From the NCBI GenBank assembly GCA_046732575.1, contig JBKPNJ010000085.1, forward strand, positions 1-34,064: a stretch of DNA of 34,064 nt, written 5' to 3'. This DNA comes from Actinomycetota bacterium. GTDB lineage: Bacteria > Actinomycetota > Actinomycetes > Propionibacteriales > Nocardioidaceae. How positions within the stretch are numbered: the first letter of the stretch is position 1; every line of letters begins with the position of its first letter. This document shows, piece after piece, positions 1,203 to 24,139 of the stretch. Both the position numbers and the translations under genes were made by a program. The notes beneath the pieces are model-generated. The model was given only the letters and a program-made list of their open reading frames with translations, made no database searches and was not told the origin of the DNA.

Positions 1203-1208
1203 CGCACG

Positions 1209-4324: not shown

Positions 4325-4591
4325 GTGATGAAGAGCTTCGACCAGCTATACGCCGAGCTGAGCAGCAAGGCGCGTACCCGCCCGGCGGGGTCGGCCACGG
4401 TCGCCGCGCTCGACGCCGGGGTGCACGGGATCGGCAAGAAGCTCGTCGAAGAGGCGGCGGAGACATGGATGGCGGCCGAGCACGAGGGGCCCGAGCGGAC
4501 AGCTCAGGAGATCAGCCAGCTGCTCTACCACACGCAGGTCATGATGATCGCGTGCAACCTGTCGCTGGACGACATCTACGACCATCTGTGA
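4325..4591 (+). CDS. hisE: Phosphoribosyl-ATP pyrophosphatase
   Basis: [42 protein letters not shown]...[13 protein letters not shown] is typical actinobacterial HisE. The start is GTG 4325 or ATG 4328. Confidence 0.9.
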
Positions 4592-4648
4592 GCCGGCGTG
4601 CCAGCCGTCCCTGACGCCGTCGATGACCTGATTGCCCGAGGCTGACTG

Positions 4649-5494: not shown

Positions 5495-5500
5495 CCACGA

Positions 5501-5941: not shown

Positions 5942-6031
5942 ACGCCACCTGCGTTCCCACGACTGTCGAGCCGCTCGTTGCCCGGTAGCGTGCACCGGAT
6001 GGCGAGCGGTCCAGGGCAGGCGGCAGGTCCC

Positions 6032-6559: not shown

Positions 6560-6570
6560 GCCGGGTCTCC

Positions 6571-7974
6571 TCAGCCGCTCCGCTCGCGAGTGCTTCTCGC
6601 GGCAAGGGCCTCGATCGCGGCGGAGAAGCACTCCATCGGTGGCGCGACGAGCCCGGCTCCCACCTGGCCCGTCCCCGCGATCCTTCCGGCCATGCCCGTG
6701 TTGATCTGCGGCAGGATCCCGGTGCGGAGCACCCGGGTGACGTCGATCCCCGTCGGAGCGCCGCGGAACTCCAGGATCGGTATCGCATAGGCGGGGTTCT
6801 CCGTGACGGTGATCTCGTACATCCGCTCGGTCGTCGCGAGTGCGTCCGGCACGCTGCCCCCAACGAACCGGACGATCGCCGGGGCGGTCGCCATCGAGAA
6901 CCCGCCGAGCCCTGCGGTCTCGGTGATCGCCGAGTCCCCGATATCCGGGTTCGCGTCGTCGGGACCGTAGGAGCCGAGATAGAGGCCGTCGGCCACACGC
7001 GCCGGGCCGGTGAACCAGTCGCCGCCGGTGCTCGAGACCTGGATCCCGAAGTCGGTGCCGTTGCGGGCCATCGTCGTGACCACCGTGCACCCGGGGATCG
7101 CATCGGCCGCCACCGTCTGAAGCTTGCAGGCGGGCATGACCAGGTTGAGGAAGAAGTGGTCGTTCGCCGAGACGAACCGCACCGCCTCGGCAACCTCGGC
7201 GCTCGGCCGGCCGGAGTCGATCATCGCCGGGAGCAGCTCGCGCAGCAGCATCAATGTTCCGGCCCGGTTGCGGTTGTGCCCCTCGTCGCCCATCTGGACC
7301 ATCTGCGCGATCACGGCCTTGATGTCGACCGGCCCGGTGCGGTCCACCGCTCGCTTCAGGAGTGGACCGAGGACATCGCTCATCCAGTGCAGTCGCTGGA
7401 CCACCTGTTCGTCGTATGCGCCGTACCGAAGGACCTTGCCCAGGCCCTCGTTGAGAGAGCACCAGGACGAGTTGCCGTGGACGTCGTCGCGCAGCTCGCA
7501 CAACCACATCGAGGACGAGACGATCCCGGCCATCGGCCCCACCGCCCCACGGTGATGGCAGGGTTCCCAGCTCACATCCCCACGCCCGAGCGCTGCCTCG
7601 GCGGCCTCAGGGGAGTCGGCCAGACCCTCGAAGAGCATCGCGCCGATCAGGCCGCCGCGCAGCGGGCCCGAGGCGCGCTCCCAGGCGATCGGAGGGCCGG
7701 CGTGCAGGAAGTGCCCGGGCCCGAGTCCCAGCGCAGCGCTCGCCGGCTGTACGTCCACCAGCATCGCCTCGGCGGCCAGCATCCGGGCGCCGGCCTCGGC
7801 GTTGCCCGCTGCGCGGCGAGCGTCGCCCATCACCGACGCCAGCGCATCCTCGGTGCCCGGGACGGGAGGCCCCCAGTCCACTCTCGTCGTCTCGACCCCC
7901 TGGGTCTCCAGGGCGTCGGCGAACAGGGCCGCACCGGCCGTGATCACGCTCGGTGGCTCGGCCAGCAGGCTCAT
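6571..7974 (-). CDS. DUF1116 protein, YlbE (AllG)-like
   Basis: Long collinear similarity, from memory, to E. coli YlbE: HAGPP, CHH..AVGPM, NEGLGKVLRYGAY, DHFFLNL, MARNG..FGI, NPDIGDSAITET.G.GG, INTGMA...GQVGAG. Its ATG overlaps the stop of the upstream FdrA-like gene (ATGA). Confidence 0.85.
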   Translation of the reverse strand: MSLLAEPPSVITAGAALFADALETQGVETTRVDWGPPVPGTEDALASVMGDARRAAGNAEAGARMLAAEAMLVDVQPASAALGLGPGHFLHAGPPIAWERASGPLRGGLIGAMLFEGLADSPEAAEAALGRGDVSWEPCHHRGAVGPMAGIVSSSMWLCELRDDVHGNSSWCSLNEGLGKVLRYGAYDEQVVQRLHWMSDVLGPLLKRAVDRTGPVDIKAVIAQMVQMGDEGHNRNRAGTLMLLRELLPAMIDSGRPSAEVAEAVRFVSANDHFFLNLVMPACKLQTVAADAIPGCTVVTTMARNGTDFGIQVSSTGGDWFTGPARVADGLYLGSYGPDDANPDIGDSAITETAGLGGFSMATAPAIVRFVGGSVPDALATTERMYEITVTENPAYAIPILEFRGAPTGIDVTRVLRTGILPQINTGMAGRIAGTGQVGAGLVAPPMECFSAAIEALAARSTRERSG

Positions 7975-9455
7975 CTGTTCGCACCCCCGAGGAGTGAGAC
8001 GGCGGTGCGAGTTGCGGCGGCGTTGGACAGGAAGACGTGCGCCCCGGCCTCCCTGAGCCCCTCCGCCTGACGCGTGAGGCCCTGCGGGTCGTCCCGCGTG
8101 CCGATCAGCGAGACGAGCACCGGGACGTCCCGAACGGACCGGGCGGCCGAGACCGCGGGACCCAGCTGCGATGCCGGGTCCGGGTGTGCGCCGTGTCCGA
8201 GCACCACATCGAGCAGGAGCGCGCCGACCTCCGGGTCCCTCGCCTCCCGGTCCAGGCGTTCGACCCGCAGGGAGCCGTCGATCATCGGGTGCGGCCGTCC
8301 CACAGTGAGCGCATCGTCGCCGAAGTCGATCATCGTGTGCCCGCGCGAGCTCCTCGTCGGGTCCAACGCCCCCGACCCGGACAGTGGAATATTCGACGCG
8401 ATGTCGCCGAGTCTGGCGGAGGCGATGAGCATCGCCTCGTCACACAGCGTTCCGCCGGCGAACAGTCCACGCAGGTAGCGACCGCGTCCCTTGGCGGGGA
8501 CCTGCGGTGGGTGGTCGGCGGGTTCACACCAGCGGCCCCCCGCGGCCTCGGCGACGCTGCGCGCGGCCGCGGTGATGTCGGGCTGCCCCGGACCGAGGAG
8601 GGCGAAGACGACCGGCTTGCCCAGTCCTTCGGCGTGTGCGCGTACCAAGCCGGCTGTCTCTGCGGCGGGTGGCTTCGACACCACGGCGACCACCTCGACG
8701 GCCGGGTCGGCGGCGAGCAGGTCGAGCGCGCGAAGCGTCGACCGCCCGGCGACCTCAGCCGACAGGTCCCGCCCCCCGACGCCCAGGCAGTGCCTGACAC
8801 CGACATCCGCAGCGTCAAGCAGGGTCATCACATGCTGGGCACCGGTGCCGGAAGCGGCGACGATCCCAACGGGGCCCGGGCGGACGACGTTGGCGAAACC
8901 GAGCCCGACGCCGCACACAACCGCCGTACCGCAGTCGGGGCCCATCAGCAGCAGGCCGCGCTCCTGGGCGGTCACCTTGAGCGCGACCTCGTTCTCGAGG
9001 CTGACGTTGTCGCTGAACAGCATGACGTCGAGACCGGCGTCGAGGGCATCGGCCGCGTCGACCGCGGCGACCCGGCCCGGCGTGGACACCAACGCCAGCG
9101 TCGCGGCCACCCGCCTGGACGCCGCACCGATCGTGCGCGGCGCCGCCGCAGCCCCGAAGCCGCTCGGCGAGGGCTTGGTCCGCTCCGCGAGCGCCGAGTC
9201 CAACGACGACACCGCAGCGTCGAGCACCGTTCGGTCCTTCGCCCGGATCGCCACCACGAGCTGGTTCGGTGAGGGGTCCGATGGTGCCCGCAGACCCATC
9301 TCCTGCAGCATCTGGAGGTTCAGCGGCGTGGCCATCGCGACCAGCGCCGCACCGACTCCCGGCCGGGCCTGGATCGCCTGGCTGACCTGCATCAGGGTCA
9401 CCGAGTCGTGGTACGCCCCCGAGCGCACCTCGACATGGCTGACCGGGTCGGTCAT
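7971..9455 (-). CDS. FdrA (AllF)-like protein, succinyl-CoA-synthetase-alpha-type fold
   Basis: YHDSVTLMQVS, MLFSDNVSLENEV.LK, GLLLMGPDCGT, ASGTGAQ, LGVGGRDLS, VSKPPA and DALTVGRPHPMID are all shared with E. coli FdrA. The start ATG at 9455 (MTDPVSHVEV) overlaps the DUF2877 stop. The ORF-track extension to 9701 is rejected. Confidence 0.85.
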   Translation of the reverse strand: MTDPVSHVEVRSGAYHDSVTLMQVSQAIQARPGVGAALVAMATPLNLQMLQEMGLRAPSDPSPNQLVVAIRAKDRTVLDAAVSSLDSALAERTKPSPSGFGAAAAPRTIGAASRRVAATLALVSTPGRVAAVDAADALDAGLDVMLFSDNVSLENEVALKVTAQERGLLLMGPDCGTAVVCGVGLGFANVVRPGPVGIVAASGTGAQHVMTLLDAADVGVRHCLGVGGRDLSAEVAGRSTLRALDLLAADPAVEVVAVVSKPPAAETAGLVRAHAEGLGKPVVFALLGPGQPDITAAARSVAEAAGGRWCEPADHPPQVPAKGRGRYLRGLFAGGTLCDEAMLIASARLGDIASNIPLSGSGALDPTRSSRGHTMIDFGDDALTVGRPHPMIDGSLRVERLDREARDPEVGALLLDVVLGHGAHPDPASQLGPAVSAARSVRDVPVLVSLIGTRDDPQGLTRQAEGLREAGAHVFLSNAAATRTAVSLLGGANR

Positions 9456-10195
9456 GCAGCGGCCTCGTATCGACCCTCGGTAACCGTCAGCTGGAGCCCG
9501 AGCAGCATCGCCCGGCCGCTGGTCCCACCCACCGCCCGCAGCGAGGCGAGTGCTGCCGCCGGATCGGCGCCACGATCGACCACATCGATCAACGCGGCGA
9601 GCGCTCCGACGCAGTAGCCCTCGCACGCATGACGGAGCAGGGCCGCGGAGAGCGCTGACGTCCGCGACCAGAGCCCCGCCGGGTCGCACCAGTCCGGGCA
9701 CGGCTCCATACCGAACGCGTTGAGCAGCACCAGCGACCCCACGAGCACGTCGTCGCCGGCCGGGGTGAGGCCCGGGCCGCGGCCGATCAAGCGCTCGGGC
9801 CGTCCGAGGTCCACCTGATCCAGCTGCACATCATCGGAACGTACGCGGGGCAGCTGAGCGACCCCGGCAAGGAATCGGCTCCGGTTCGCGATGCGGGGGC
9901 GGGGGGGAGCCCACCAGCGGTGGGGGCGCACGGTCTGGTTGCCGGCGACCAGCTTGCCGTCGCCGATCACCGCGGAGCCGCGCTCGCCGAGGTCGAGCTC
10001 CCCGTCGTACACCACCGAGCAGGGCAGCACTATCGCGCGGCTGCGCTGCAACGACACCACCCGAAAGCCCGGCGCCGACGTGGTCAGGTGCCATGCCACC
10101 TGGGTGCCGGAGACGGCGCGCAGTGATGTGGGCGGACCGTCGAACAGCGGCGCCAGCACCGAGCTGGCGGCGGCTGCCATCGGAGGACCCGGCAC
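9452..10195 (-). CDS. DUF2877 protein, YlbF (AllH)-like
   Basis: GRGPGLTPAGDDVLVG motif and a helical C-terminus typical of DUF2877. It is the first gene of the minus-strand trio. I prefer GTG 10195 as the start, with GGAAGGAG 5 nt upstream; ATG 10180 or ATG 10279 are alternatives. Codons upstream of 10195 have poor GC3. Confidence 0.7.
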   Translation of the reverse strand: MPGPPMAAAASSVLAPLFDGPPTSLRAVSGTQVAWHLTTSAPGFRVVSLQRSRAIVLPCSVVYDGELDLGERGSAVIGDGKLVAGNQTVRPHRWWAPPRPRIANRSRFLAGVAQLPRVRSDDVQLDQVDLGRPERLIGRGPGLTPAGDDVLVGSLVLLNAFGMEPCPDWCDPAGLWSRTSALSAALLRHACEGYCVGALAALIDVVDRGADPAAALASLRAVGGTSGRAMLLGLQLTVTEGRYEAAA

Positions 10196-10373
10196 CCTCG
10201 CTCCTTCCCGTCCGCCCAGCGCGGGAAACTCACATGCTAGCGGTGCCGTCGCAGGCAATGAGGACGCGTTTTCGGGCATGGTTGCCTCGACGGGACCGGT
10301 CACACGGGCTGGCGGCATCGACGGCGCCGGCGGGGAGATGCGGTGCGCGGCACCGCTGAAGGGTGGGACGGAC

Positions 10374-11783
10374 ATGGCGCTTGGGTGGAAGCTCGTACAC
10401 GACGGAAGGACACCGCCGCCAGGTGAGGCGGTCGCACCCGACGAGCGGCTTTCGTGGGGCCGCACGGTCGGCCTCGGCGCCCAGCACGTGGTGGCCATGT
10501 TCGGCGCAACCTTCGTGTTCCCGCTGATCATGGGCCTCAACCCGCAGCTCGCGATCATGATGAGCGGCATCGCCACGATCTGCTTCCTGCTGATCGTGCA
10601 GGGAAAGGTGCCGAGCTACCTCGGCACCAGCGCCTCCTTCGTCGGCGGTGTGGCAGCCATCCGGGCGCAGGGAGGCGACTCCGCCGACGTCACCGGCGCG
10701 ATTCTGATCGCGGGCTTCGTCCTGCTGCTGGTCGGGCTGCTGATCCACTTCGCCGGTCCTCATCTGCTGCAGGTCGTCCTGCCGCCTGCTGTGACCGGAG
10801 CGGTGGTCATGCTCATCGGGTTCAACCTCGCGCCGGTCGTGGCGCACATCTACTGGCCGCAGGACCAGTGGATCGCCTTCGCCACCATGACGTTCGTCAT
10901 CCTGGTGGCGGTCGGCGTCCGTGGCTTCTTCGGCCGCATCGCGATCTTCCTCGGTCTCGTCTTCGGGTACCTCCTGTCCTGGTTCGCCGACGCGGCCTTC
11001 GGACCGATCACGTCGTTCGACGCCGCGGCCGGCAAGGTGACCACGCATGACCGTGTGAGCTGGACGAGCGTGAAGGCGGCGGACTGGATCGGGCTCCCGC
11101 CGCACACCGACGACGCCGCGGGCGTGGTCGGCTGGCACTGGCCAAGCTTCTCGGTGACGTTCACCCTGCTGGTGCTCCCGGCCGTCATCGCCCTGGTCGC
11201 GGAGAACACCGGGCACGTGAAGGCTGTCGGTGAGATGACGCGCCGCGACCTCGACCCGGTGATGGGGCGGGCCATCGCCGCCGACGGTTTCGGCACCATG
11301 CTCGCCTCCTCCGTGGGCGGCTCACCGACGACCACGTACGCCGAGAACATCGGGGTGATGGCCGCGACGCGTGTGTACTCGACCGCCGCGTACTACGTCG
11401 CCGCCGTGGTCGCGATCCTCTTCGGGCTGTCACCGAAGTTCGGCGCCCTGGTGGCCTCGACCCCGGGGGGCGTGCTCGGCGGCATCACCGTCGTCCTCTA
11501 CGGCATGATCGGCCTGCTGGGTGCAAAGATCTGGAAGGAGAACGCCGTCGACTTCGGCAATCCGATCAACCTGGTTCCGCTCGCCGCAGGGATCATCATC
11601 GCGATCGGCGACACCTCGCTGAAGGTCACCGACGACTTCATCCTCTCCGGTATCGCCCTCGGGACACTGGTCGTCGTGGTGTTCTACCACCTGGCCCGGG
11701 CTGTGGCGCCCGCCCATCTGCGTGAGGATGGGACGGTGCTCAGCGTGGGCACGCCGGGAGCACACCGCACCGACGACGTCTGA
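10374..11783 (+). CDS. NCS2/NAT-family nucleobase permease, uracil-type
   Basis: LGAQHVVAMFGATFVFP and the NAT signature TYAENIGVMAATR, with Glu (not Gln) at the first signature position as in UraA/PyrP. Polytopic. ATG 10374 is preceded by GAAGGGTGGGA. Confidence 0.85.
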   Translation: MALGWKLVHDGRTPPPGEAVAPDERLSWGRTVGLGAQHVVAMFGATFVFPLIMGLNPQLAIMMSGIATICFLLIVQGKVPSYLGTSASFVGGVAAIRAQGGDSADVTGAILIAGFVLLLVGLLIHFAGPHLLQVVLPPAVTGAVVMLIGFNLAPVVAHIYWPQDQWIAFATMTFVILVAVGVRGFFGRIAIFLGLVFGYLLSWFADAAFGPITSFDAAAGKVTTHDRVSWTSVKAADWIGLPPHTDDAAGVVGWHWPSFSVTFTLLVLPAVIALVAENTGHVKAVGEMTRRDLDPVMGRAIAADGFGTMLASSVGGSPTTTYAENIGVMAATRVYSTAAYYVAAVVAILFGLSPKFGALVASTPGGVLGGITVVLYGMIGLLGAKIWKENAVDFGNPINLVPLAAGIIIAIGDTSLKVTDDFILSGIALGTLVVVVFYHLARAVAPAHLREDGTVLSVGTPGAHRTDDV

Positions 11784-11802
11784 ACCGAGGCAGACCGCGA
11801 CC

Positions 11803-12681
11803 GTGAAGCCGTCCCCCTTCACCTATCACCGGCCCCACTCCGTCGACGAAGCGCTGACCGTGCTCGCGGAGGTGGCCGCGGACGGCAAGGTGCTCGCCGG
11901 CGGGCAGAGCCTCGTCCCGCTGCTGTCGATGCGGCTGGCGGCGCCCGCGCACCTTGTCGACATCAACCACATCCCCGGTCTTGACTCGATCGAGGTCGCA
12001 GACGGGCTGGTACGCATCGGGGCGGCCGTGCGTCACGCCGCGCTCGAGCACAGCGACGCTGCTGCAAGCGCGATCCCGCTTCTGCGGCAGACGGTCACCT
12101 GGATCGCGCATCCCACCATCCGTAACCGTGGCACGAGCCTGGGCAGCATCGTGCACGCCGACCCCGCCGGCGAGCTCCCGGCCGTGCTGGCCCTCCTCGA
12201 CGGCGAGGTGGAGGCAGCAAGCACGAGCGGTCGTCGGCGCATCGCCGCCGCAGAGTTCTTCCTCGGGCCGCTGGAGAGCGCGCTGGTCCCCGGTGAGCTG
12301 GCGGTCACCGCCACCTTCCGTGTGCCCGCGCCGGGCAGCGGCTCGGCGTGGACCGAGGTCGCGCGCCGGCACGGCGACTACGCTGTGTGCGGAGTGGGAG
12401 CCACCGTGACCGTTGACGACGACCGGATCGTCACCGCTGCCCGGGTCGCGCTGATCTCGGTCGGTCCCGTACCGGTCCTCGTCGACCTGGCCGAGCAGCT
12501 GACGGGGCAGGACGCCGACCACCTCGACGTCGGCGATGCAACCGCGATGGTGCTGAGCCGCATCGACGCGGAGGACGACATCCACGCCAGCGCGCGCTAC
12601 CGCCGACAGCTCGCCCAGGTGCTGACCGGCCGGGCCCTGCGCGCGGCCGTTCGCCACGGGACCGGCCTGGCGGCGGCGTGA
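11803..12681 (+). CDS. Molybdenum hydroxylase FAD-binding (medium, CoxM/XdhB-like) subunit
   Basis: VKPSPFTYHRPHSVDEAL...LAGGQSLVPLLSMRL is the canonical FAD-binding subunit N-terminus. GTG start at 11803. The stop overlaps the next start (GTGA at 12678-12681). Confidence 0.88.
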   Translation: MKPSPFTYHRPHSVDEALTVLAEVAADGKVLAGGQSLVPLLSMRLAAPAHLVDINHIPGLDSIEVADGLVRIGAAVRHAALEHSDAAASAIPLLRQTVTWIAHPTIRNRGTSLGSIVHADPAGELPAVLALLDGEVEAASTSGRRRIAAAEFFLGPLESALVPGELAVTATFRVPAPGSGSAWTEVARRHGDYAVCGVGATVTVDDDRIVTAARVALISVGPVPVLVDLAEQLTGQDADHLDVGDATAMVLSRIDAEDDIHASARYRRQLAQVLTGRALRAAVRHGTGLAAA

Positions 12682-13172
12682 GCGCGCCGCCGGTCGAGAG
12701 CGTCCACCACATCACCCTCCTCGTCAACGGGGTGCCGCTCGAGCTGACGGTGCCGGCACGCCGGCTGCTGTCCGACGCACTGCGTCACGACCTGCGGTTG
12801 ACCGGTACGCACGTGGGCTGTGAGCACGGCGTGTGCGGAGCTTGCACGGTGCTGGTCGACGGCCGGCCGACCCGGTCCTGCCTGGTCTTCGCGGTGAGTG
12901 TGGAAGGCTCCTCGATCACCACCGTGGAAGGGTGCTGCGAGACCGACGGCTCGATGGGCCGCGTGCAGCGGGCATTCCAGCGCTGCCATGCACTGCAGTG
13001 CGGGTTCTGCACGCCGGGGTTCGTCACCACGATCACCGCGTTCCTGCGCGACAACCCCGACCCGAGCGACGCCGATGCCCGCGAGGCGATCGCCGGCAAC
13101 CTCTGCCGCTGCACGGGATACCAGAACATCGTCGCGGCCGTGCTCAGCGCCGCCCGGGACGGCTCGCCGTGA
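12678..13172 (+). CDS. Molybdenum hydroxylase 2x[2Fe-2S] (small, CoxS/XdhC-iron-sulfur-like) subunit
   Basis: GCEHGVCGACTV (plant-type cluster) and QCGFCTPG...NLCRCTGYQNI (second cluster). Confidence 0.92.
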   Translation: MSAPPVESVHHITLLVNGVPLELTVPARRLLSDALRHDLRLTGTHVGCEHGVCGACTVLVDGRPTRSCLVFAVSVEGSSITTVEGCCETDGSMGRVQRAFQRCHALQCGFCTPGFVTTITAFLRDNPDPSDADAREAIAGNLCRCTGYQNIVAAVLSAARDGSP

Positions 13173-15616
13173 CCACCAGGATGCTGGGCCAACCGGTGCA
13201 GCGCGCGGAGGACCCACGGCTGCTCACCGGCAACGGCCGCTACCTCGACGACCTCGGCCAGACCGCGTATGCCGCTGCGTTCCTCCGCTCTCCACACGCC
13301 CACGCCCGGATCGCGTCCGTCGACGTCAGCGACGCGCTCGAGGTCGAGGGGCTGATCGCGATCTACACCCACGAGGACCTCGAGGGCCGGGCGGCCGAGC
13401 CGCTGCCGCTGCTGATCCCGCACCCGTCGCTGTCGCACGGCCGCACCCCGTACGCCCTTGCGCGCGACGAGGTCAACCACGTCGGTGAGGCGATAGCGAT
13501 GGTGGTGGCCAGCGACCGGTACGTCGCCGAGGACGTTCTGGAGCGGATCACTGTCGAGTACGACTTCCTGACCCCTGTCGTCGGCCTGGAGTCGTCTCGC
13601 GCCGCCGAGAGCCTGGTGCACGACGACGTGCCCGGCAACGTCGCCGCACACCTGCTCCAGGAGACCGGGAACGCCGAGGCGGCCATCGACGCCGCGCCGC
13701 ACCAGCTGTCGCTGGACCTCTCGATCGAGCGCAGTGCATCCACGCCGATGGAGGGCAAGGGCGTCCTCGCCAGGTGGGACCCCGACGACCGGTCGCTTCT
13801 CGTGCACACCTCCACCCAGACCTCCACCAGCGTCCGTCAGGCCATCGCGGCCAAGCTCGAGCTGCCGGTCGACCGGGTGGAGGTGGTGACGCCGGACGTG
13901 GGAGGCGGTTTCGGCGTCAAGATCGTGCATCCGTGGCCGGAGGAGATCATGGTCCCCTGGGCCGCGATCAGGCTCGGGCATCCGGTCAAGTGGGTCGAGG
14001 ACCGCCGTGAGCACTTCATCTCCAGCGCGCACGAACGGGCCCAGCTGCACCAGGTCCGAGTCGGCTTCGACGACAACGGTCGGCTGCAGGGGCTGTCGGT
14101 GCGGTTCTGGCACGACAACGGGGCCTACACGCCGTACGGCCTGATCGTGCCGATCATCACCGCCACGCAGCTCCTGGGACCATACAAGCCGGGGCCGTAC
14201 CGGGTGGAGTTCTGGAGCATCTACACCAACACGGTGATCGTGACGCCGTACCGTGGTGCCGGCCGGCCACAGGGATGCTTCGTGATGGAGCGAACGCTCG
14301 ACGCCATCGCCGACGAGCTGGGTATCGACCGGGCGGTGGTCCGCGCCAACAACTTCATCCAGCCCGGGGAGATGCCGTACGACCACGGCCTGCTGTTCCA
14401 GGACGGTCGTCCGCTGATCTACGACTCGGGCGACTTCCCGGCCACGCTGGCCAAGCTCCGCGCTCTGGTCGGCTGGGACGACTTCGAGGTCTACCGGGAC
14501 CATGCCCGGGCAGAGGGCCGGACGGTCGGCATCGGGATGGGCTGCTACGTCGAGGGCACCGGCGTCGGACCGTACGAAGGTGGACACCTGCGGATCGAGA
14601 CCGACGGCACGGTTGTGGTGTCCACCGGACTGACCAGCCAGGGGCAGGGCCATCAGACGATGCTCGCCCAGCTTGTGTCCGACGAGCTCGGGGTGCCGTT
14701 CGACCGGATCCGGGTGACCACCGGGGACACCCGCAGGTTCAAGTACGCGGTCGGAACCTTCGCCTCCCGTACCGCGGTGATGAGCGGGAGCGCGGTCGCC
14801 TTGACCGCCCGCAAGGTGCGCGCCAAGGCACTGCGGATCGCCGCGCAGGCACTCGAGGCCGACCCCGACGATCTGGAGATCGTCGCCGGGATGGTCCGGG
14901 TCAGGGGAGCCCCGGCGGCGGAGATCGACCTCGGCGCGGTCGCCGTCTTGTCGAACCCGCTGCGCTACGCCTTCGACGAGGCGGCGTCGCGGGCGACGCA
15001 GTTCGTGACGTCGGTCGATCCGGACATGCCACCGGTCGCGTTGGGCGACGAGCCCGGGCTGGAGGGCACCGCGTACTACTCGCCGCCGCGCTCGACGTTC
15101 GCCAACGGCATGCACGCCGTCGTGGTGGAGACCGACCCGGAGACCGCGGAGATCACGGTGCTGCGGTACTGCGTCGTGCACGACTGCGGCACCGTCATCA
15201 ACCCGATGATCCTCGAGGGCCAGATCCACGGTGGCGTGGCGCAGGGGGTGGGCGGCGCACTCTACGAGCGGATGGTCTACGACTCGTCGGGCCAGCTGCT
15301 CAATGCCAGCTTCATGGACTTCCTGATGCCGTACGTCACCGAGGTGCCGCCGATCGAGATCGACCACCTCGAGACGCCCTCGCCGTTGAACCCGCTCGGC
15401 GTCAAGGGGGCGGGGGAGGCGGGTGTGATCCCCGGCTCGGCAGCTGTCGCGGCGGCGATCGAGGACGCGGAGGGGTTCCGGATCACCGCGATGCCGATCT
15501 CGCCCAGCGAGCTGTTCGACCTTCGCCGCGGCGCCCTCGAGGGCCGGGTTCCGTGGCTGCGCGGGAGGCGTCCGGCGGACGTCGCGGACGGTTCATCCGC
15601 GGCAGGCGGCTCGTGA
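13169..15616 (+). CDS. Molybdenum hydroxylase molybdopterin-binding (large, form-II CoxL-like) subunit
   Basis: N-terminus MLGQPVQRAEDPRLLTGNGRYLDD, DVGGGFGVK, and the active-site loop TPYRGAGRPQG (YRGAGR at 14249-14266). The start is GTG 13169 (GTGA overlap) or ATG 13181. Confidence 0.9.
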   Translation: MTTRMLGQPVQRAEDPRLLTGNGRYLDDLGQTAYAAAFLRSPHAHARIASVDVSDALEVEGLIAIYTHEDLEGRAAEPLPLLIPHPSLSHGRTPYALARDEVNHVGEAIAMVVASDRYVAEDVLERITVEYDFLTPVVGLESSRAAESLVHDDVPGNVAAHLLQETGNAEAAIDAAPHQLSLDLSIERSASTPMEGKGVLARWDPDDRSLLVHTSTQTSTSVRQAIAAKLELPVDRVEVVTPDVGGGFGVKIVHPWPEEIMVPWAAIRLGHPVKWVEDRREHFISSAHERAQLHQVRVGFDDNGRLQGLSVRFWHDNGAYTPYGLIVPIITATQLLGPYKPGPYRVEFWSIYTNTVIVTPYRGAGRPQGCFVMERTLDAIADELGIDRAVVRANNFIQPGEMPYDHGLLFQDGRPLIYDSGDFPATLAKLRALVGWDDFEVYRDHARAEGRTVGIGMGCYVEGTGVGPYEGGHLRIETDGTVVVSTGLTSQGQGHQTMLAQLVSDELGVPFDRIRVTTGDTRRFKYAVGTFASRTAVMSGSAVALTARKVRAKALRIAAQALEADPDDLEIVAGMVRVRGAPAAEIDLGAVAVLSNPLRYAFDEAASRATQFVTSVDPDMPPVALGDEPGLEGTAYYSPPRSTFANGMHAVVVETDPETAEITVLRYCVVHDCGTVINPMILEGQIHGGVAQGVGGALYERMVYDSSGQLLNASFMDFLMPYVTEVPPIEIDHLETPSPLNPLGVKGAGEAGVIPGSAAVAAAIEDAEGFRITAMPISPSELFDLRRGALEGRVPWLRGRRPADVADGSSAAGGS

Positions 15617-15841
15617 CCGGTCGTCCACCCGATCGGCGCGGGTCGCTCCCGATGGACGGCTACGGAAGCGTCACTGCGCAGGCCGTCCGCGGGCTGGCGG
15701 CTCACGGGGAGTCGACACTGAGCCCGGCGACGCCTCCGGGCGCCGGGCCCGGCGCCGATCCCGGGCCCCGCACGCTGCCTGAGACTCCGAGCCGGGGAAC
15801 CGGCGGGTCGTCTCGCCCGCGGAATGCCACACTTGACCACC

Positions 15842-16483: not shown

Positions 16484-16549
16484 TCGGGCGAACCGGACGG
16501 AGATCTGCCAGACCAGGGATCCAGACAACGTGAGACACGAGGAACCGAG

Positions 16550-17458: not shown

Positions 17459-19578
17459 CACGCCGGATCCGCATCGGCGTCGACACCGGGGGCACGTTCA
17501 CCGACGTGGTCGCCGTCGACGAGTCGACCGGACGGCTCGAAGCCACCAAGACACCGTCGACCCCTGCCGATCCGGCACAGGGCTTCATGACCGGGGTGCA
17601 CAAGGTCCTCGCCGCTCTGGATCTCGCCGGAGACTCGATCAGCGCGGTGAGCCACGGCACCACGGTCGCCACCAACAAGCTGCTCGAAGGCAAGGTGGAG
17701 AACCTGGGTTTCATCACCACCGAGGGCTACGGCCACATCCTGGAGATCGCCCGGCAGTCGGTTCCAGACGGCTACGGCAACTCGTACTTCTGGGTCAAGC
17801 CGCCGCGGATAGTGCCGGCGGACCGGGTCAAGACCGTCCCGGGACGGCTGCTGGTCGATGGCAGCGAGCTGCGTCCGTTCGACGAGGACGCGGCGATCGA
17901 GGTCGCCCGCTGGTTCGCCGACCGGGGTACCACGGCGATCGGCGTCTGCTTCCTGCACTCCTACGCCAACCCGGCCCACGAGCTGGCGATGCTGGACGTG
18001 CTGACCCGAGAGCACCCACAGGCCGTCGTCTCGATCTCCTCACACGTGCTGCGCGAGTACCGCGAGTACGAGCGCAGCGTCACCACGCTGGTGGACGCAG
18101 CGGTGAAGCCCGACATCCGGCGCTACGTGGCGAACATCACCGCACACCTGAGCGCATTCACCGGCATTGGCACCTCCGCCGGCTCAGCCCCGACCCGCCC
18201 CGTCCCGTTCTACGTGATGAAGTCGAATGGCGGCGTGCTCTCGGCGGAGGAGGTCGTGAACCAGCCGATCACGACAGTGCTGTCGGGGCCCGCCGCCGGA
18301 GCGCTCGGTGCCTCCGTCGTCGCCGAACGGGCTGGCCTGCGGGAGGTGGTCACCTGTGACGGAGGTGGCACGTCGACCGACGTCACAGTCGTCCTGGATG
18401 GGCAACCGGCGCTGACGACCGAGGGCTCGGTCGGCGCGTATCCATCCAAGATCCCGATGATCGACGTGGTGACGGTCGGCGCCGGCGGCGGGTCGATCGC
18501 TTGGGTGAGCCCGGAGGGCACGCTCAAGGTGGGGCCGCGCTCGGCCGGCGCCGACCCCGGCCCGATGTGCTACGGCCGCGGCGGCTCCGAGCCCACGGTC
18601 ACCGACGCCCACCTGCTGCTCGGCCGGATCCCACCACGCCTGCTGGGCGGGGAAGTGCCACTGGCTGTCGAGGAGGCACGCCCTGGAATGGATGCGCTGG
18701 CCGGCAAGCTGGCCATGACCCCGGAGTCGTGTGCGGCCGGCATCCTGGAGATCTCGGCGTGGAACCAGGCCAACGCGATTCGCCAGGTCACCGTCAAGCG
18801 AGGATTGGACATCCGAGACTTCCACCTGGTGACGTTCGGCGGCTCCGGCTCGCTGCTGGCCTGCCGGCTGGTCGACGTCCTGGAGCTCGGGGGGGTGCTC
18901 GTTCCGCTCGACCCCGGCAGTCTGTCGGCGTACGGCCTGCTGACGGTCGACGTCCGAAACGACTACGTCCAGACCGCGGTCGAGCGGCAGTCGAGGCTGT
19001 CGGTCACTGCGGTCCGCTCGATCTTCGACGACCTGCGGTCGCAGGCCGACGCGGCGCTGGCTCGCGAGGGCTTCGGCGCGCAGGCGCGGCGGTTCGTGCG
19101 GACCGCCGATCTGCGCTACTACGGACAGGCGTTCGAGGTACGGGTCGAAGTTCCCGACGGGCCGGTGACCCCCGACCTGCTCGCGGTGGTTGCCGCCGCG
19201 TTCCACGAGGAGCACAGCGCGCTGTACGGATACGACTTCCGCGACGACCGCCGACAGGAGGTCGAGTGGGTCAACCTACGGGTCACCGGTGTGGGCCCGA
19301 TCCGCAAGCCCGGAACAAGGAGCGTCGAGGCGGGCCGCGGGGCGGACTCGGCGCGCACCGGAACGCGCCCGGTGCTCTTCGACGAATGGATGGACAGCGC
19401 GGTCTACGACCGGCTCGGGCTCGGCGCGGGCGACGTTGTCGACGGCCCGGCGGTGCTCGAGGAGTTCAGCTCCACCGTCCCGGTGCATCCCGGGTTCCGA
19501 GCCACAGTCGACGGTGCGGGAAACCTCCTCATCGCGCGGGCGGCGGCAGAGGCGACCAGCGGTCGGACCGGCTCGTGA
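17455..19578 (+). CDS. hyuA: Hydantoinase/oxoprolinase family, A subunit (ATP-binding)
   Basis: IGVDTGGTFTDVVAVD N-terminus, followed by Hydantoinase_A-type regions (GGGTSTDV, VGAGGGSIAW). GTG 17455 overlaps the CN-hydrolase stop (GTGA). Confidence 0.88.
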   Translation: MTRRIRIGVDTGGTFTDVVAVDESTGRLEATKTPSTPADPAQGFMTGVHKVLAALDLAGDSISAVSHGTTVATNKLLEGKVENLGFITTEGYGHILEIARQSVPDGYGNSYFWVKPPRIVPADRVKTVPGRLLVDGSELRPFDEDAAIEVARWFADRGTTAIGVCFLHSYANPAHELAMLDVLTREHPQAVVSISSHVLREYREYERSVTTLVDAAVKPDIRRYVANITAHLSAFTGIGTSAGSAPTRPVPFYVMKSNGGVLSAEEVVNQPITTVLSGPAAGALGASVVAERAGLREVVTCDGGGTSTDVTVVLDGQPALTTEGSVGAYPSKIPMIDVVTVGAGGGSIAWVSPEGTLKVGPRSAGADPGPMCYGRGGSEPTVTDAHLLLGRIPPRLLGGEVPLAVEEARPGMDALAGKLAMTPESCAAGILEISAWNQANAIRQVTVKRGLDIRDFHLVTFGGSGSLLACRLVDVLELGGVLVPLDPGSLSAYGLLTVDVRNDYVQTAVERQSRLSVTAVRSIFDDLRSQADAALAREGFGAQARRFVRTADLRYYGQAFEVRVEVPDGPVTPDLLAVVAAAFHEEHSALYGYDFRDDRRQEVEWVNLRVTGVGPIRKPGTRSVEAGRGADSARTGTRPVLFDEWMDSAVYDRLGLGAGDVVDGPAVLEEFSSTVPVHPGFRATVDGAGNLLIARAAAEATSGRTGS

Positions 19579-21458
19579 GCGGCCACCGGCTCACCGGCGC
19601 GGGCCAGGTCGACCCGGTACTCGTCGAGATCGTCGAGGGATACCTCGCCGCTGTCGAGCAGGAGGTGGAGAGCGCGATCGGGCGCACCAGCCGGTCACCG
19701 ATGATCCGGGACGCCCACGACTACCGGGCCGGCATCCACGACCGCCACCTGCGCAAGCTCACCGGCCGGTCGTACTCCGCGCTGGTGCACCCGGTCGCGC
19801 GTGACTACCCACTGGACACCATGCGACCCGGCGACGTGTTCTTCCACAACGACGTCTACCTGTCCGAGGGGGGAATCGGCCACCTGCCCGACCTGTGCGT
19901 GACCGCACCGGTCTTCCACGACAGCGGCGGCGGCCCGGAGGTGGTGGGCTTCGTCCAGGCGTTCGGGCACCACGACGACATCGGTGGCGCGGTGCCGGGA
20001 TCGATGCCGAGCCAGGCAACCAGCGTGTTCGAGGAGGGCCTGATGGTTCCCCCGATCAAGCTCTGGGACGCGGGAGTGCCGTGCGAGCAGGCATTGAAGA
20101 TCATGACCCGCAACTCGCGGATGCCTGAGTCGCTGGCGGCAGACCTCGACGCGGAGTGCTCAGCCTGCCTGCTGGGCGGGCATCGGCTGGCCGCATTGTT
20201 CACCCGGTACGGCAAGGCCACCGTCGAGGCATGCTTCGACGCCGTCCTGGACAAGACCACGGAGACGTTCCGGCGGGAGGTGCTGGCCAAGATCCCCGCC
20301 GGCAGATACACCTGGGAGGACTACGCCGAGCATGACGGGGTCGATGCGCCGCGGCTGCATACGCAACGCATCACGCTCACCAAGATCGACGATGACGGCG
20401 GTAGCCTCGTGCTCGACTTCGACGGTACCGGTCCGCAGGCCAGGGGCCCGATCAACCACTGCGGAGACTACGCCGACGGCAACTTCCTGAAGAAGTGGCT
20501 GGCGCCGATCCTTCGCAACCTGGCCGACTCGCCGGAGCGGATGGCCGAGCTCGACGTCAACGAGGGCGTCGTGCCGCTGATCGAGATGCGCTTCCCGCCG
20601 AAAGGAACGCTGCTCACCCCACGGTTCCCGGCTCCGACCAACGCCCGCACGTTCGTCATTCTCCGCCTGCTCGGTGTGCTCGCCGGGGTGCTCGCCAAGG
20701 CCGTCGACGGCCGGATGCCGGCCGACCAGGAGACGATCCGCTACACAGGTGTCTACGGCGACGACCTCGACGGGAAGCCGTACCTGATGCGCGAGGTGCT
20801 CGGGGGCGGCTCCGGCGGCCGGTACTACGCCGACGGAGAGGACACCATCCACGTAGTGCCGGACTCGCGAAACCTGCCGACTGAGTTCTCCGAAGCCAGG
20901 TTCCCGTTCATCGTCGAGCGGCTGGGCCTGGCCTGCGACAGCGGCGGCGCGGGGCGTTTCCGGGGTGGGCTGGGGTACGAGAAGCACATCAGGATGCGCA
21001 GGGACGCCCACTTCATGTCGATCGCCGACCGGTCGATCCTGGCCTGCTGGGGTGTCAACGGCGGAAGGGCCGGTCGCCCCTTCCAGGTGGTTATCGACCC
21101 CGACGGACCCGATGAGCGCCGCGTCGACGCGTTGGCCGATGCCGAGCCGGTCAAGGCCGGCGAAGTGATCCGGATCCGCACCACCGGTGGAGGCGGATGG
21201 GGCGACCCGCTCGAGCGCCCGTACGACGATGTGCTCCGCGATGTCTGCTGGGGGAAGGTGTCGGTCGAGGGCGCGCGATCCGACTACGGCGTCGAGCTGT
21301 CGATGGCCGGCGGGGAGCCGGTGCTGGACGTATCCGCCAGCGAACAGCGGCGTGCCCGGCTGCGCGCCGAGCGCGACGACGAACCGTTCTTCGACCGCGG
21401 CCCCGGATACGCAAGTCTCTCGGGCGGCCGGCGGGCTGCCGAATGCGACTGGCGGTGA
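19575..21458 (+). CDS. hyuB: Hydantoinase/oxoprolinase family, B subunit
   Basis: DPVLVEIVEGYLAAVEQEV...SPMIRDAHDY...HNDVYLSEGGIGHLPD...GGGGWGDPLERP are typical of HyuB/oxoprolinase C-terminal halves. GTG 19575 overlaps the hyuA stop. Confidence 0.88.
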   Translation: MSGHRLTGAGQVDPVLVEIVEGYLAAVEQEVESAIGRTSRSPMIRDAHDYRAGIHDRHLRKLTGRSYSALVHPVARDYPLDTMRPGDVFFHNDVYLSEGGIGHLPDLCVTAPVFHDSGGGPEVVGFVQAFGHHDDIGGAVPGSMPSQATSVFEEGLMVPPIKLWDAGVPCEQALKIMTRNSRMPESLAADLDAECSACLLGGHRLAALFTRYGKATVEACFDAVLDKTTETFRREVLAKIPAGRYTWEDYAEHDGVDAPRLHTQRITLTKIDDDGGSLVLDFDGTGPQARGPINHCGDYADGNFLKKWLAPILRNLADSPERMAELDVNEGVVPLIEMRFPPKGTLLTPRFPAPTNARTFVILRLLGVLAGVLAKAVDGRMPADQETIRYTGVYGDDLDGKPYLMREVLGGGSGGRYYADGEDTIHVVPDSRNLPTEFSEARFPFIVERLGLACDSGGAGRFRGGLGYEKHIRMRRDAHFMSIADRSILACWGVNGGRAGRPFQVVIDPDGPDERRVDALADAEPVKAGEVIRIRTTGGGGWGDPLERPYDDVLRDVCWGKVSVEGARSDYGVELSMAGGEPVLDVSASEQRRARLRAERDDEPFFDRGPGYASLSGGRRAAECDWR

Positions 21459-22054
21459 GCCGCGCCGAGGAGACGACCGGCGAGCCGCTGGCCCGTCCGT
21501 CCGCCGAGCAGCTCCAGGGGTCCCCCAGCGAGCTGGTGGCCGCGCTGTCGGCCCGCTGGGGCACCGACCGCGTCGCCGAGTACTGCGCCGGGCTGCTGCA
21601 GGGTGACGACCCGCTCGGCTGTCCCGAAGCACTGCTGTTCATCGGCGGGCGTGGGGCGGCCGGTCTCACCCGGCTGGGCGACGGGCGAGCGGCGCTGCGT
21701 TACTGGCCGAGGGTCTGGGCGGCACGGGCGTTGCGGTATGCGTGGTCACAGACCGCGGTCCCCGCGGTGGTGGCCGCGCTGGACGACGAGTCCTGGAGAG
21801 TGGCCGAGCAGGCGATGAAGGTGATGGCGAGGTACGAGGTGAGCGAGGGCGTGGAGGCAGCGCTGCGCTGGGTCGACGACGAGCTGCCGAGGGTGCGAGC
21901 GACGACACTGCGGCTGCTCGGAGCGGTTGGTGAGTCCGAGCACGTCCGGTACGTCCTGGATGCCCGGCACGACCCGCACCCGGGGGTGCGCAGCTCGGCC
22001 TCGAACGCGCTGTCGCGGCTCGAACGCCGGCTCGACAGGGAGCTGCCGCGATGA
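21455..22054 (+). CDS. HEAT-repeat (PBS-lyase-type) protein of unknown function
   Basis: Repeated helical units each end in an Asp-x-x-x-x-Val-Arg pattern: DDESWRVAEQAMKVM, DDELPRVRATTLRLLG, DPHPGVRSSASNALSRL. The start is GTG 21455 (GTGA overlap with hyuB) or ATG 21443. Its stop overlaps the carbamate kinase ATG. Confidence 0.6.
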   Translation: MSRAEETTGEPLARPSAEQLQGSPSELVAALSARWGTDRVAEYCAGLLQGDDPLGCPEALLFIGGRGAAGLTRLGDGRAALRYWPRVWAARALRYAWSQTAVPAVVAALDDESWRVAEQAMKVMARYEVSEGVEAALRWVDDELPRVRATTLRLLGAVGESEHVRYVLDARHDPHPGVRSSASNALSRLERRLDRELPR

Positions 22055-23013
22055 AGGTCCTCATCGCACTCGGCGGCAACGCGATGACGGGACCGGACGG
22101 CGACGCCCGGCCGCAGGCGCAGATCGCGGCGGCGGAGCGGGCGATGGCCAGGGTCGCGGAGCTGGTCGCCGCCGGGGCGGATGTGGTGATCACCCACGGC
22201 AACGGACCGCAGGTCGGGAACCTGCTGGTGAAGAACGAGATCGCTGCCGGAGTCGTCCCGCCGGTGCCCCTTGACTGGTGCGGGGCGCAGACCCAGGCAA
22301 CGCTCGGATTCATCCTCCTCGACGCACTGGACCAGGCTCTCCGCCGGGTGGGCGTGCATCGGCAGTCCGCGGCGGTGGTGACGCGCACCCTGGTGGATCG
22401 CGACGACCCCGGGTTCTCGAATCCCAGCAAGCCGATCGGACGCTTCCTTCCCGCGCCGGAGGCAGCGACCCTCATCGAGCATGGGCAGACGTGGCAGGAC
22501 CGCGGCGCCCGGGGATGGCGCCGGGTGGTGCCGTCCCCCGAGCCGTTGGAGATCCTCGACGCGGATGCAGTGCTCCGGCTGGTGGAGGCCGGGTTCGTGG
22601 TCGTCGCCAACGGTGGCGGGGGGATCCCCGTCGTACGCGAACCGGACGGCCGGCTCCGTGGCGTCGAGGCGGTGATCGACAAGGATCTCGGCGCGGCGCT
22701 GCTGGCCCGGACCGTGCGGGCGGACGTCCTGGTCATCGCGACCGACGTGCAGAACGCCGTGGTCGGGTTCGGCACGCCGCAGGCGCGTCCCATCGGGCCC
22801 GTTGAGGTCACTGCGCTACGCCGACTCGCCGACGAAGGACACTTCGCCAGCGGCAGCATGGGACCGAAGGTGGAAGCGGTCTGCAGGTTCGTCGAGGACA
22901 GCATGGGGTACGCCGTGATCACCAGCCTCGACCTCATCGTCGACGCGGCGGCCGGTCGGTCCGGCACCGTCGTGCGACCGGACGCACCAGGAGAGCAGGG
23001 TTCAGATGCCTGA
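22051..23013 (+). CDS. arcC: Carbamate kinase
   Basis: [12 protein letters not shown]...[14 protein letters not shown]...GGGGIPV...VIDKDL...ATDV...GSMGPKVEA are canonical carbamate kinase motifs. Confidence 0.9.
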
Positions 23014-24139
23014 CGCGACAGAGGTACGCAAGGTCCCGATCGGCCACGTGTCGGATGCCGGCGGGCTGTCGGACCTGATAGATGCCGGGATCATCGAGGC
23101 CGACCGGGTGGTGGCGGTGATCGGCAAGACCGAGGGCAACGGCGGAGTCAACGACTACACACGTATCATTGCCGACCGTGCCTTTCGCGAGGTGCTGGCC
23201 GACCGCGGAACTCGTAGCACCGATGAGGTCAGACAGGTGCCGATCGTGTGGTCGGGCGGGACCGACGGGGTGATCAGCCCGCACGCGACGATCTTCGCCA
23301 CCGTTGGCGACCGACAGGTACAGCCGACCGATGAGCCACGCCTGACGGTCGGCTTCGCGATGAGCGACGTCCTGCTCCCGGAGGAGATCGGGAGGACGCC
23401 GATGGTGACCAAGGTCGCGGCAGCGGTGACCGAGGCGATGCAGCGTGCCGGAATTGACGACCCGGCCGATGTGCACTACGTGCAGACCAAGACCCCGCTG
23501 CTGACCATCTCAACGATCCGGGATGCGAAGGCCCGCGGCAAGACTGTGTGGACCGAGCACACGCACGAGTCGATGGACCTCTCCAACGGCTGCACCGCGT
23601 TGGGGGTTGCCGTGGGACTCGGTGAGATCGGGATGCCGACCGACCAGCAGGTGATGAACGACCGCTCGGTGTACTCGACGGTGGCGTCCTGCTCCAGCGG
23701 TGTCGAGCTCGACCGGGCCCAGGTCGTGGTCGTCGGCAACGCGCGCGGCATCGGCGGGCGGTACGCGATCGGGCACTCTGTGATGCGGGACGCGCTCGAC
23801 CAGGACGGGATCTGGAGCGCGATCCGCGACGCCGGGCTCGACCTGCCGGATCGCCCGCGGCCGGACGACCTCGATGGCCGGCTGGTGAACGTCTTCCTCA
23901 AGTGCGAGGTCAGCCAGGACGGCCGGGTTCGCGGCCGTCGCAATGCGATGCTCGACGACTCCGACGTCCACTGGCATCGGCAGATCAAGAGCTGCGTCGG
24001 CGGCGTCGCTGCTGCCGTCACCGGCGATCCGGCTGTGTTCGTCTCGGTGTCGGCGGCGCACCAGGGACCCGATGGTGGTGGCCCGGTCGCGGCGATCGTC
24101 GATTTGGGCGAGAACCCCACCGGCTATCGGGGGGGATGA
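23006..24139 (+). CDS. Ring-opening amidohydrolase of the AtzD/TrzD cyanuric acid hydrolase / barbiturase family
   Basis: [42 protein letters not shown] and [12 protein letters not shown] correspond to the three pseudo-symmetric Ser/Lys repeats of this small family. An 8-nt overlap joins it to the carbamate kinase gene, and AGGAGAG lies upstream. Confidence 0.85.

Follow-up and report, generated by a model that had tools for sequence, protein, structure and literature searches.

We analysed a 34,064-nt contig (JBKPNJ010000085.1, assembly GCA_046732575.1; hereafter the window) from an actinomycetotal bacterium of the family Nocardioidaceae, and found that a 17.6-kb island of 14 genes in it is very probably a barbiturate (oxidative pyrimidine) catabolic cluster. 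A preliminary description of this DNA had proposed such a cluster, and the barbiturase, the N-heterocycle-type molybdenum (Mo) enzyme and the uracil-type permease encoded here bear the proposal out. For the island as a whole we lean, with modest confidence, towards a scheme in which uracil or thymine is degraded via barbiturate and the ring-opened product, N-malonylurea, is then phosphorolysed, with a carbamate kinase (CK) and an amidase completing the route. The pyrimidine would be taken up by a uracil-type permease of the NCS2 family, oxidised at C6 to (5-methyl)barbiturate by a three-subunit Mo hydroxylase together with CoxG, and opened to N-malonylurea (3-oxo-3-ureidopropanoate) by barbiturase, a step for which both orthology and specificity residues speak. 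An AllFGH-type enzyme would convert N-malonylurea and inorganic phosphate (Pi) to carbamoyl phosphate and malonamate, a reaction one methylene group removed from that on oxalurate. The carbamate kinase, whose family is clear, would be coupled to it by turning carbamoyl phosphate and ADP into ATP, NH3 and CO2, and a CN-hydrolase may release malonate and NH3 from malonamate. In related clusters, a CoA-transferase and a carboxyltransferase would carry malonate through malonyl-CoA to acetyl-CoA.

The gene at the end of the plus-strand run, assigned to the AtzD family, encodes a true barbiturase as judged from its sequence. The protein shares 81% identity, across 369 residues, with the crystallised barbiturase of Rhodococcus erythropolis, and it matches that structure (PDB 5HWE) with 657 bits, compared to 326 bits for the best cyanuric acid hydrolase. 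The family domain is full-length (Pfam PF09663, 477 bits, profile positions 1-358 of 358; TIGR02714, 581 bits). Barbiturase specificity is marked by Asn194/His324/Lys328/Val348/Ser(or Ala)349, whereas cyanuric acid hydrolases carry Arg/Thr/Arg/Gly/Gly (Peat et al. 2013, PMC3758960), and at these positions the window protein reads N-H-K-V-S, the complete set of the barbiturases (Group VI of the AtzD/TrzD Toblerone-fold family). Identity, bit scores and signature thus agree that the preliminary description was right to see a barbiturase here. The NCBIfam equivalog for cyanuric acid amidohydrolase, NF052395, also accepts the protein (471 bits, cut-off 360). More than 7,900 proteins matched the barbiturase in a protein search at E <= 1e-40, and among those listed the barbiturase type was in the majority. 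One 490-residue protein from an ENA metagenome (P0206) has an amino-acid-kinase domain (PF00696) joined to a barbiturase domain (PF09663); this is a true fusion of CK and barbiturase, or else two genes called as one over the 8-nt overlap between them.

The Mo enzyme is encoded as separate flavin adenine dinucleotide (FAD), 2x[2Fe-2S] and molybdopterin (MoCo) subunits with all the corresponding Pfam domains, which is the CoxSML architecture of the xanthine oxidase family. The active-site loop of its large subunit reads PYRGAGR; the AYxCSFR loop of CO dehydrogenase, with its Cu-binding cysteine, is not present. An identity as CO dehydrogenase was rejected on account of this loop; the earlier label of a form-II CoxL holds to the extent that the motif is a variant of the form-II type. 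The nearest solved relatives of the large subunit found in the PDB were quinoline 2-oxidoreductase and 6-hydroxypseudooxynicotine dehydrogenase, both of them N-heterocycle hydroxylases. In nearly all related loci coxG follows coxL. Gene context makes the enzyme a probable uracil/thymine dehydrogenase (EC 1.17.99.4); no sequence-defined member of this activity was found in NCBIfam release 20, which holds no uracil dehydrogenase model and no AllG or AllH model, or in the open-access literature. Among NCBIfam models the large subunit scores 1503 bits against NF040766 ('CODH_aero_grp5') and 439 bits against TIGR02416, under the cut-off of 991. Naming based on NCBIfam would therefore mislabel two genes of the island, as 'aerobic carbon-monoxide dehydrogenase large subunit' and 'cyanuric acid amidohydrolase'. 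The permease scores 348 bits for RutG, 249 for UraA and 150 for the xanthine permease PbuX, all under the equivalog cut-offs; since both uracil transporters outscore the xanthine permease, its description as uracil-type stands.

The divergent operon encodes three AllFGH-type subunits together. The AllG-like subunit is 46% identical to E. coli YlbE/AllG (top PDB match 3CLQ, an uncharacterised protein), and the AllF-like subunit shows 38% identity to E. coli FdrA/AllF in an alignment of 501 residues, with 405 bits for NF004760, just under the cut-off of 433. The AllH-like subunit can be aligned with E. coli YlbF over no more than its C-terminal ~100 residues (36% identity); its gene starts with a GTG at 10195, with GGAAGGAGCGAGG upstream of the start. 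The kinase shares 42% identity with E. coli AllK/YbcF; it passes NF009007 (301 bits, cut-off 266) and falls just below the arcC model TIGR00746 (337.5 bits, cut-off 358). The purified E. coli AllF-AllG-AllH complex interconverts oxamate plus carbamoyl phosphate and oxalurate plus Pi (Kim & Kim 2024, PMC11326118), and the Pfam AllG and AllH domains, the FdrA match and the identities of 36-46% place the window trio in this oxamate carbamoyltransferase family, as had been proposed. The kinase gene lies in the other operon, 12 kb away, and the linkage is kept across loci. Neither the window nor any related locus inspected contains a homologue of allB, allC, allD or allE. With no allantoin-pathway gene in these clusters, the substrate of the trio should therefore come from the cluster itself, and our analysis makes it rather likely that the trio phosphorolyses N-malonylurea.

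Related loci were collected by a genome scan with the large subunit, which gave 80 loci at 70-82% identity, and their content was determined by tblastn with the 14 window proteins and with extra genes met in the relatives. The loci belong to Nocardioides, Jiangella, Terrabacter, Pedococcus, Phycicoccus, Knoellia, Embleya, Streptomyces, Actinomadura and Phytoactinopolyspora as well as to many metagenome-assembled genomes, and the same gene set in 80 loci from many genera is not a matter of chance. AllF/AllG are encoded divergently from permease-CoxMSL-CoxG in 48 of the 52 loci with at least 7.5 kb of upstream sequence, and a PucR-family regulator is found upstream in 43 of the same 52, mostly between allH and the permease gene. 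The 178-nt gap between these two genes in the window has no PucR-family gene, and no other regulator is encoded in the island. CK lies directly upstream of the barbiturase gene in 19 of the 20 CoxL-found loci that reach it; independently of CoxL, the same was seen in 7 of 9 distinct look-ups centred on barbiturase, so that the two are adjacent in 26/29 of the barbiturase loci examined. Co-localisation of barbiturase, fdrA/DUF1116/DUF2877, CK and CoxLMS across actinobacterial genera, which the preliminary description had put forward as a check, is thus observed (48/52 and 26/29). In a close relative (L086), the barbiturase is 89% identical and the gene order, including the HEAT gene, and the right flank are the same.

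The slot after CoxG holds a CN-hydrolase in 45 loci, an amidase-signature enzyme in 16, both in none and neither in six. The preliminary description had noted that the island has no amidase-signature enzyme; this is true of the window, whereas in the 16 relatives such an enzyme takes the place of the CN-hydrolase (for example at 13340-14764 of locus L001, the counterpart of 16550-17458 in the window). This exchange is a non-orthologous gene displacement, and the mutual replacement argues for one simple amide-hydrolysis step. The window CN-hydrolase reached no NCBIfam equivalog cut-off, and PDB searches with it and with two of the amidase-signature enzymes returned only generic relatives, which for the CN-hydrolase were of nitrilase, amidase, formamidase and carbamoylase types. 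We regard it as a candidate malonamidase, an assignment that we hold to be evenly balanced; it may instead be an N-malonylurea hydrolase. A family-III CoA-transferase is additionally encoded in many relatives, and in several a CoA-transferase is paired with a carboxyltransferase beside CK-barbiturase; the pair (CoA_transf_3 and Carboxyl_trans) is found beside CK-barbiturase or bar in Embleya, Nonomuraea, Rhodococcus and metagenome loci, and is absent from the window. It probably serves malonate activation and decarboxylation, and its presence in related clusters fits malonate as the end product. In Nonomuraea, the bar gene sits among unrelated genes.

HyuA and HyuB are encoded by adjacent genes and have all their domains (N-terminal, central and C-terminal of HyuA, and that of HyuB). 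The best PDB match of HyuA is the N-methylhydantoinase 7HK5 (475 bits, compared to 360 bits for 6YRA), and HyuA is present in 49 of the 55 loci with enough downstream sequence. By its sequence, HyuAB is presumably an N-methylhydantoinase-like enzyme that hydrolyses ATP. Its likeliest role would be a side branch for a ring that barbiturase refuses, such as thymine-derived 5-methylbarbiturate, or the clean-up of hydantoin-type oxidation by-products. The cleavage of N-malonylurea had been called ATP-yielding; as a net gain this is not supported, given that the core HyuAB presumably hydrolyses ATP, and the term is to be read as one ATP recovered per carbamoyl group. We also considered the HEAT protein as a conserved subunit and rejected this, as it is present only here and in L086, while elsewhere the position holds an NmrA-like/SDR gene or nothing; it is a lineage-specific insert. 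Variable cargo was seen between the amidase gene and HyuA or after HyuB in other loci (L021 14116-17664, L013 12427-18700, L024 12991-15109), comprising a HEAT-domain glycosyltransferase, a UDP-glycosyltransferase, an RHS-repeat protein and a beta-lactamase-family protein, and the cluster evidently tolerates insertions at these two junctions.

Taken together, phosphorolysis of N-malonylurea is supported by the adjacency of CK and barbiturase, the replacement of one amidase by another, the malonate-type genes, the co-localisation across genera and independent clusters on proteobacterial plasmids, described below. Several points nevertheless weigh against the scheme. Identities of 36-46% to E. 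coli AllFGH are too low to fix the substrate of the trio from sequence, and the uracil/thymine dehydrogenase assignment has gene context as its only basis. A Blastococcus locus (L085) reads HyuAB-NmrA-CK-Bar-permease-CoxMSL-CoxG, with AllFGH and the amidase not found within 10 kb, and another locus (L087) holds HyuB-CK-Bar only, with no trio nearby, so that the tie of CK to barbiturase and HyuAB is closer than its tie to the trio. HyuAB itself is as conserved as any component, is probably costly in ATP, and is without a place in the scheme. Lastly, the CN-hydrolase or the amidase-signature enzyme could be the classical N-malonylurea hydrolase, leaving the trio and the kinase to another acylurea.

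The last of these points leads to the strongest of the other explanations, which we consider rather unlikely. Here the CN-hydrolase or amidase-signature enzyme would hydrolyse N-malonylurea to malonate and urea, and AllFGH and CK would serve a separate acylurea branch, in which HyuAB opens a hydantoin-type ring (for example 5-hydroxyhydantoins from oxidation and ring contraction of barbiturate) and an NmrA-like/SDR protein oxidises the ureido-hydroxy acid to oxalurate or a close analogue. This would give HyuAB a role and would keep AllFGH on the substrate proven for it (PMC11326118), and it agrees with the urea and malonate reported from Rhodococcus, with the similarity of HyuAB to N-methylhydantoinase and its translational coupling to the CN-hydrolase, like a classic hydantoinase/carbamoylase pair, and with the NmrA-like or SDR gene that lies between HyuB and CK in many relatives. 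However, that gene is absent from the window and from three further loci (L006, L009, L037), and no urease or other urea-handling gene was seen in the window or the related clusters examined. CK is tied to barbiturase, not to HyuAB alone, and it is tied to a ring-opening amidohydrolase also in HyuAB-free proteobacterial plasmids. Moreover, we know of no enzyme for the proposed ring contraction of barbiturate.

It is less probable still that the downstream chemistry is as we propose but that the Mo enzyme acts on another N-heterocycle, such as a hydroxypyrimidine or a pyrimidine analogue funnelling into barbiturate, with HyuAB acting on a further ring. The assignment to uracil and thymine does come from context, as EC 1.17.99.4 has no known sequence; quinoline and a nicotine metabolite are the substrates of the nearest solved enzymes, the regulators of the relatives are of the PucR type, a family tied to purine catabolism, and the permease stays under the RutG and UraA cut-offs. 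On the other hand, the permease is clearly nearer to uracil than to xanthine transporters, a uracil phosphoribosyltransferase (UPRTase) gene adjoins bar in the Rhodococcus cluster, and the oxidation of uracil is named in PMC3758960 as the only established biological source of barbiturate. The reading that automatic annotation would give, of a CO dehydrogenase operon, a cyanuric acid hydrolase and allantoin genes without functional links, has the NF040766 and NF052395 scores in its favour and is hardly credible in view of the PYRGAGR loop, the barbiturase signature and identity, and the co-conservation and translational coupling of the gene set in many genera.

The G+C content of the window is ~70%, so that plain lists of open reading frames (ORFs) are noisy; genes were therefore mapped by frame analysis of third-position GC (GC3) and inspection of start codons, and domains by Pfam and NCBIfam scans (Table 1). 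This reproduced the 14 genes given before, three on the minus and 11 on the plus strand, the extent of the plus-strand run and every item of the listed domain content. One boundary had to be moved: the frame plot sets the junction of HyuB and the HEAT gene at 21455, instead of the longer ORF start at 21197. The preliminary description had also stressed coupling by 4-nt overlaps, and this holds for six of the ten plus-strand junctions (read from the sequence as GTGA at 12678, 13169, 17455, 19575 and 21455 and ATGA at 22051), while one is an 8-nt overlap (ATGCCTGA at 23006-23013, between CK and barbiturase) and three are gaps of 19, 207 and 66 nt. The divergent operon is coupled in the same manner, by ATGA at 7971 and 9452 on the minus strand. 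Pfam scans of every GC3-supported gene revealed no urease, allophanate hydrolase or biuret hydrolase in the window, in line with the earlier account, and Rfam and tRNA scans of the window found no RNA elements.

Table 1. Features of the barbiturate island (window coordinates) and of related loci (coordinates within each locus)
Feature	Position	Strand	Evidence or content
AllG-like subunit (DUF1116), AllFGH-family carbamoyltransferase	6571-7974	-	Pfam PF06545 AllG, 312 bits
AllF-like (FdrA) subunit	7971-9455	-	Pfam PF00549; NF004760, 405 bits
AllH-like subunit (DUF2877)	9452-10195	-	Pfam PF11392 AllH, 77 bits
Divergent intergenic (control) region, 178 nt	10196-10373		Sequence read
NCS2 nucleobase permease, uracil/RutG-like	10374-11783	+	Pfam PF00860
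FAD-binding medium subunit, Mo hydroxylase	11803-12681 (alternative start 11728)	+	Pfam PF00941, PF03450
2x[2Fe-2S] small subunit	12678-13172	+	Pfam PF01799, PF00111; GTGA overlap on either side
Molybdopterin (MoCo) large subunit	13169-15616	+	Pfam PF01315, PF02738, PF20256
CoxG-like accessory protein	15824-16483	+	Pfam PF06240
CN-hydrolase-family amidase	16550-17458	+	Pfam PF00795, 158 bits
HyuA, ATP-dependent hydantoinase/oxoprolinase alpha	17455-19578	+	Pfam PF05378, PF01968, PF19278
HyuB, beta subunit	19575-21458	+	Pfam PF02538, 455 bits; end set by frame plot
Small HEAT-repeat protein	21455-22054	+	Pfam PF13646, PF02985
Carbamate kinase	22051-23013	+	NF009007, 301 bits
Barbiturase (EC 3.5.2.1), AtzD family	23006-24139	+	PF09663; PDB 5HWE match, 657 bits
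CoA-transferase + acetyl-CoA-carboxylase-type carboxyltransferase pairs	L084 16048-18797; L091 11196-13849; L082 4340-7074		Embleya, Rhodococcus, metagenome loci
Leclercia pZ96-1_4 cluster (L173, NZ_CP040892.1)	661-10740		Membrane protein, ring-opening amidohydrolase, NCS2 permease, DUF2877, FdrA, DUF1116, carbamate kinase, LysR
Aminobacter pSR8 cluster (L172, NZ_CP062120.1)	9843-23655		FdrA, DUF1116, ring-opening amidohydrolase, carbamate kinase, amidohydrolase, ABC nucleoside-type transporter, DUF2877

Housekeeping genes on both sides mark the cluster as a discrete island: the left flank comprises ribD-ribE-pnuC-ribBA-ribH, hisE, hisG, bPH and GNAT genes, and the right flank genes for an AAA NTPase, SseB, infC, rplT, a SpoU methylase, a histidine kinase, pheST and argC. 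The hisE-hisG pair (4163-6559) lies just upstream of the island, and the Blastococcus cluster of L085 also directly follows hisE-hisG (1-930 of that locus), which suggests a shared or recurrent insertion site. At the other end, the barbiturase gene and a convergent gene for an AAA/STAND-like NTPase (24124-24771, minus strand) share 16 nt at their 3′ ends. A gene for a 156-residue protein with no Pfam match follows at 24788-25258, and it and the NTPase gene adjoin the island in L086 as well.

To our knowledge, the biochemistry of the oxidative pyrimidine pathway dates back to 1952 and barbiturase is its sole step with an assigned gene. The island supplies gene candidates for uracil/thymine dehydrogenase and for the steps after ring opening. 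The module combination had been presented as undescribed, and we likewise found no account of it in open-access papers or bioRxiv, subscription-only literature having been outside the search; the open-access structural and enzymological papers found on the AtzD family describe neither the gene cluster nor a link of AllFGH or CK to barbiturase. The pathway and each enzyme family are already known; the novelty lies in how they are combined, in the reaction predicted and in the genes assigned to the steps. The predicted carbamoyl transfer from N-malonylurea to phosphate would widen the AllFGH class to new substrates, and the surveyed loci suggest that nitrogen is released through carbamoyl phosphate, not urea, at most environmental barbiturase loci.

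Among the known systems closest to the window is the oxidative pyrimidine pathway of R. erythropolis, for which PMC3758960 cites Soong et al. (2001) for the formation of urea and malonate via 'ureidomalonase'. As a genomic counterpart we examined the cluster of the sibling species R. qingshengii, in which the barbiturase differs from that of R. erythropolis JCM 3132 very little (99% identity). Like the window, it contains NCS2 permeases (two), a CoxMSL-type Mo enzyme (63% identical), CoxG and HyuA; it also encodes an aminotransferase and XdhC and, unlike the window, two PucR regulators and the CoA-transferase and carboxyltransferase. Its bar gene is preceded by a UPRTase gene, an arrangement reportedly noted by Soong et al. 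in 2002, and is overlapped downstream by an amidase-signature gene, with no CK beside it, and AllFGH was not found within 10 kb of it. In contrast, the window and most of the other genera couple CK to bar and have the AllFGH-like operon divergent from the permease gene. No protein of the PF01425 family, to which the product of the Rhodococcus bar-overlapping gene, a candidate ureidomalonase (EC 3.5.1.95), belongs, is encoded in the window, and the amidase in the Nocardioides slot is only 39% identical to that protein. In a metagenome scan, relatives of the Rhodococcus bar-adjacent amidase (<=78% identity) occurred in unrelated contexts, and the barbiturase-amidase pair was repeated solely in a second Rhodococcus contig, so that this arrangement looks specific to Rhodococcus. 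Two versions of the chemistry after ring opening are plausible: the published end products of Rhodococcus are urea and malonate, whereas the window cluster, which lacks urea-handling genes, would form carbamoyl phosphate. HyuAB of the window, for its part, shares all domains with the N-methylhydantoinase/5-oxoprolinase/caprolactamase family and scores 494 bits with the caprolactamase equivalog, against a cut-off of 1000.

A further comparison is provided by plasmids, whose loci were obtained from searches with the barbiturase and with AllG by comparing the lists of the best 30 matches. At least 21 Klebsiella, Citrobacter, Enterobacter, Raoultella and Leclercia plasmids were among the best 30 matches of both searches; several of these plasmids are from showers, drains and hospital patients. 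Like the window, the plasmid clusters combine a Toblerone-fold ring opener and an NCS2 or ABC nucleobase transporter with AllH/AllF/AllG and CK; unlike it, they lack a Mo enzyme, HyuAB and an amidase. Their ring openers carry the R-T-R-G-G signature and match Moorella cyanuric acid hydrolase with 582 bits, and are therefore of the cyanuric acid type. Cyanuric acid is a by-product of chlorinated isocyanurate disinfectants, and oxalurate, N-malonylurea and carboxybiuret all have the form H2N-CO-NH-CO-X-COO-, in which X is absent, CH2 or NH, respectively. The lack of an amidase in the plasmid clusters would be expected if carbamoyl transfer fully consumes carboxybiuret and allophanate, malonamate alone needing an amidase. 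This suggests a phosphorolytic cyanuric acid route on plasmids, and hints at a related route for a disinfectant by-product in Enterobacteriaceae of hospitals and plumbing; no description of this cluster type was found in the open-access literature searched.

The trio proteins of the plasmids are 29-51% identical to those of the window, about as far from them as the E. coli proteins, and across the four contexts (window, E. coli, Leclercia and Aminobacter) the trios are about equally distant, at 25-54% identity. In nitrifiers, a metagenome study of 2025 reported allFGHK beside genes for biuret and triuret hydrolases, and its authors interpreted this as catabolism of oxalurate (PMC12625717). That a ureide ring opener repeatedly occurs together with the trio and CK is best accounted for if the trio acts on the ring-opened acylurea. 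We tentatively go further and raise the possibility, on which we are more doubtful than hopeful, that AllFGH-type enzymes are general acylurea phosphorylases that team up with Toblerone-fold ring openers and CK to turn cyclic ureides into carbamoyl phosphate and then ATP with no urea formed. If this were true, the phosphorolytic route would be the prevalent oxidative pyrimidine pathway in soil Actinobacteria and the urea-forming Rhodococcus route the exception, while enterobacterial plasmids would be spreading a parallel pathway for the phosphorolytic breakdown of cyanuric acid. Another of the closest known systems is E. coli AllFGH/AllK, which comprises the same three families and CK as the window (38%, 46% and 36% identity for AllF, AllG and AllH, the last alignable over its C-terminal third only, and 42% for AllK). 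The order allFGHK of E. coli differs from the allH-allF-allG of the window with CK in another operon, and the window trio, unlike that of E. coli, is linked to barbiturase and a Mo hydroxylase, with no allB, allC, allD or allE nearby. The reaction proposed for the window would thus be the chemistry of E. coli AllFGH on a substrate one CH2 longer.

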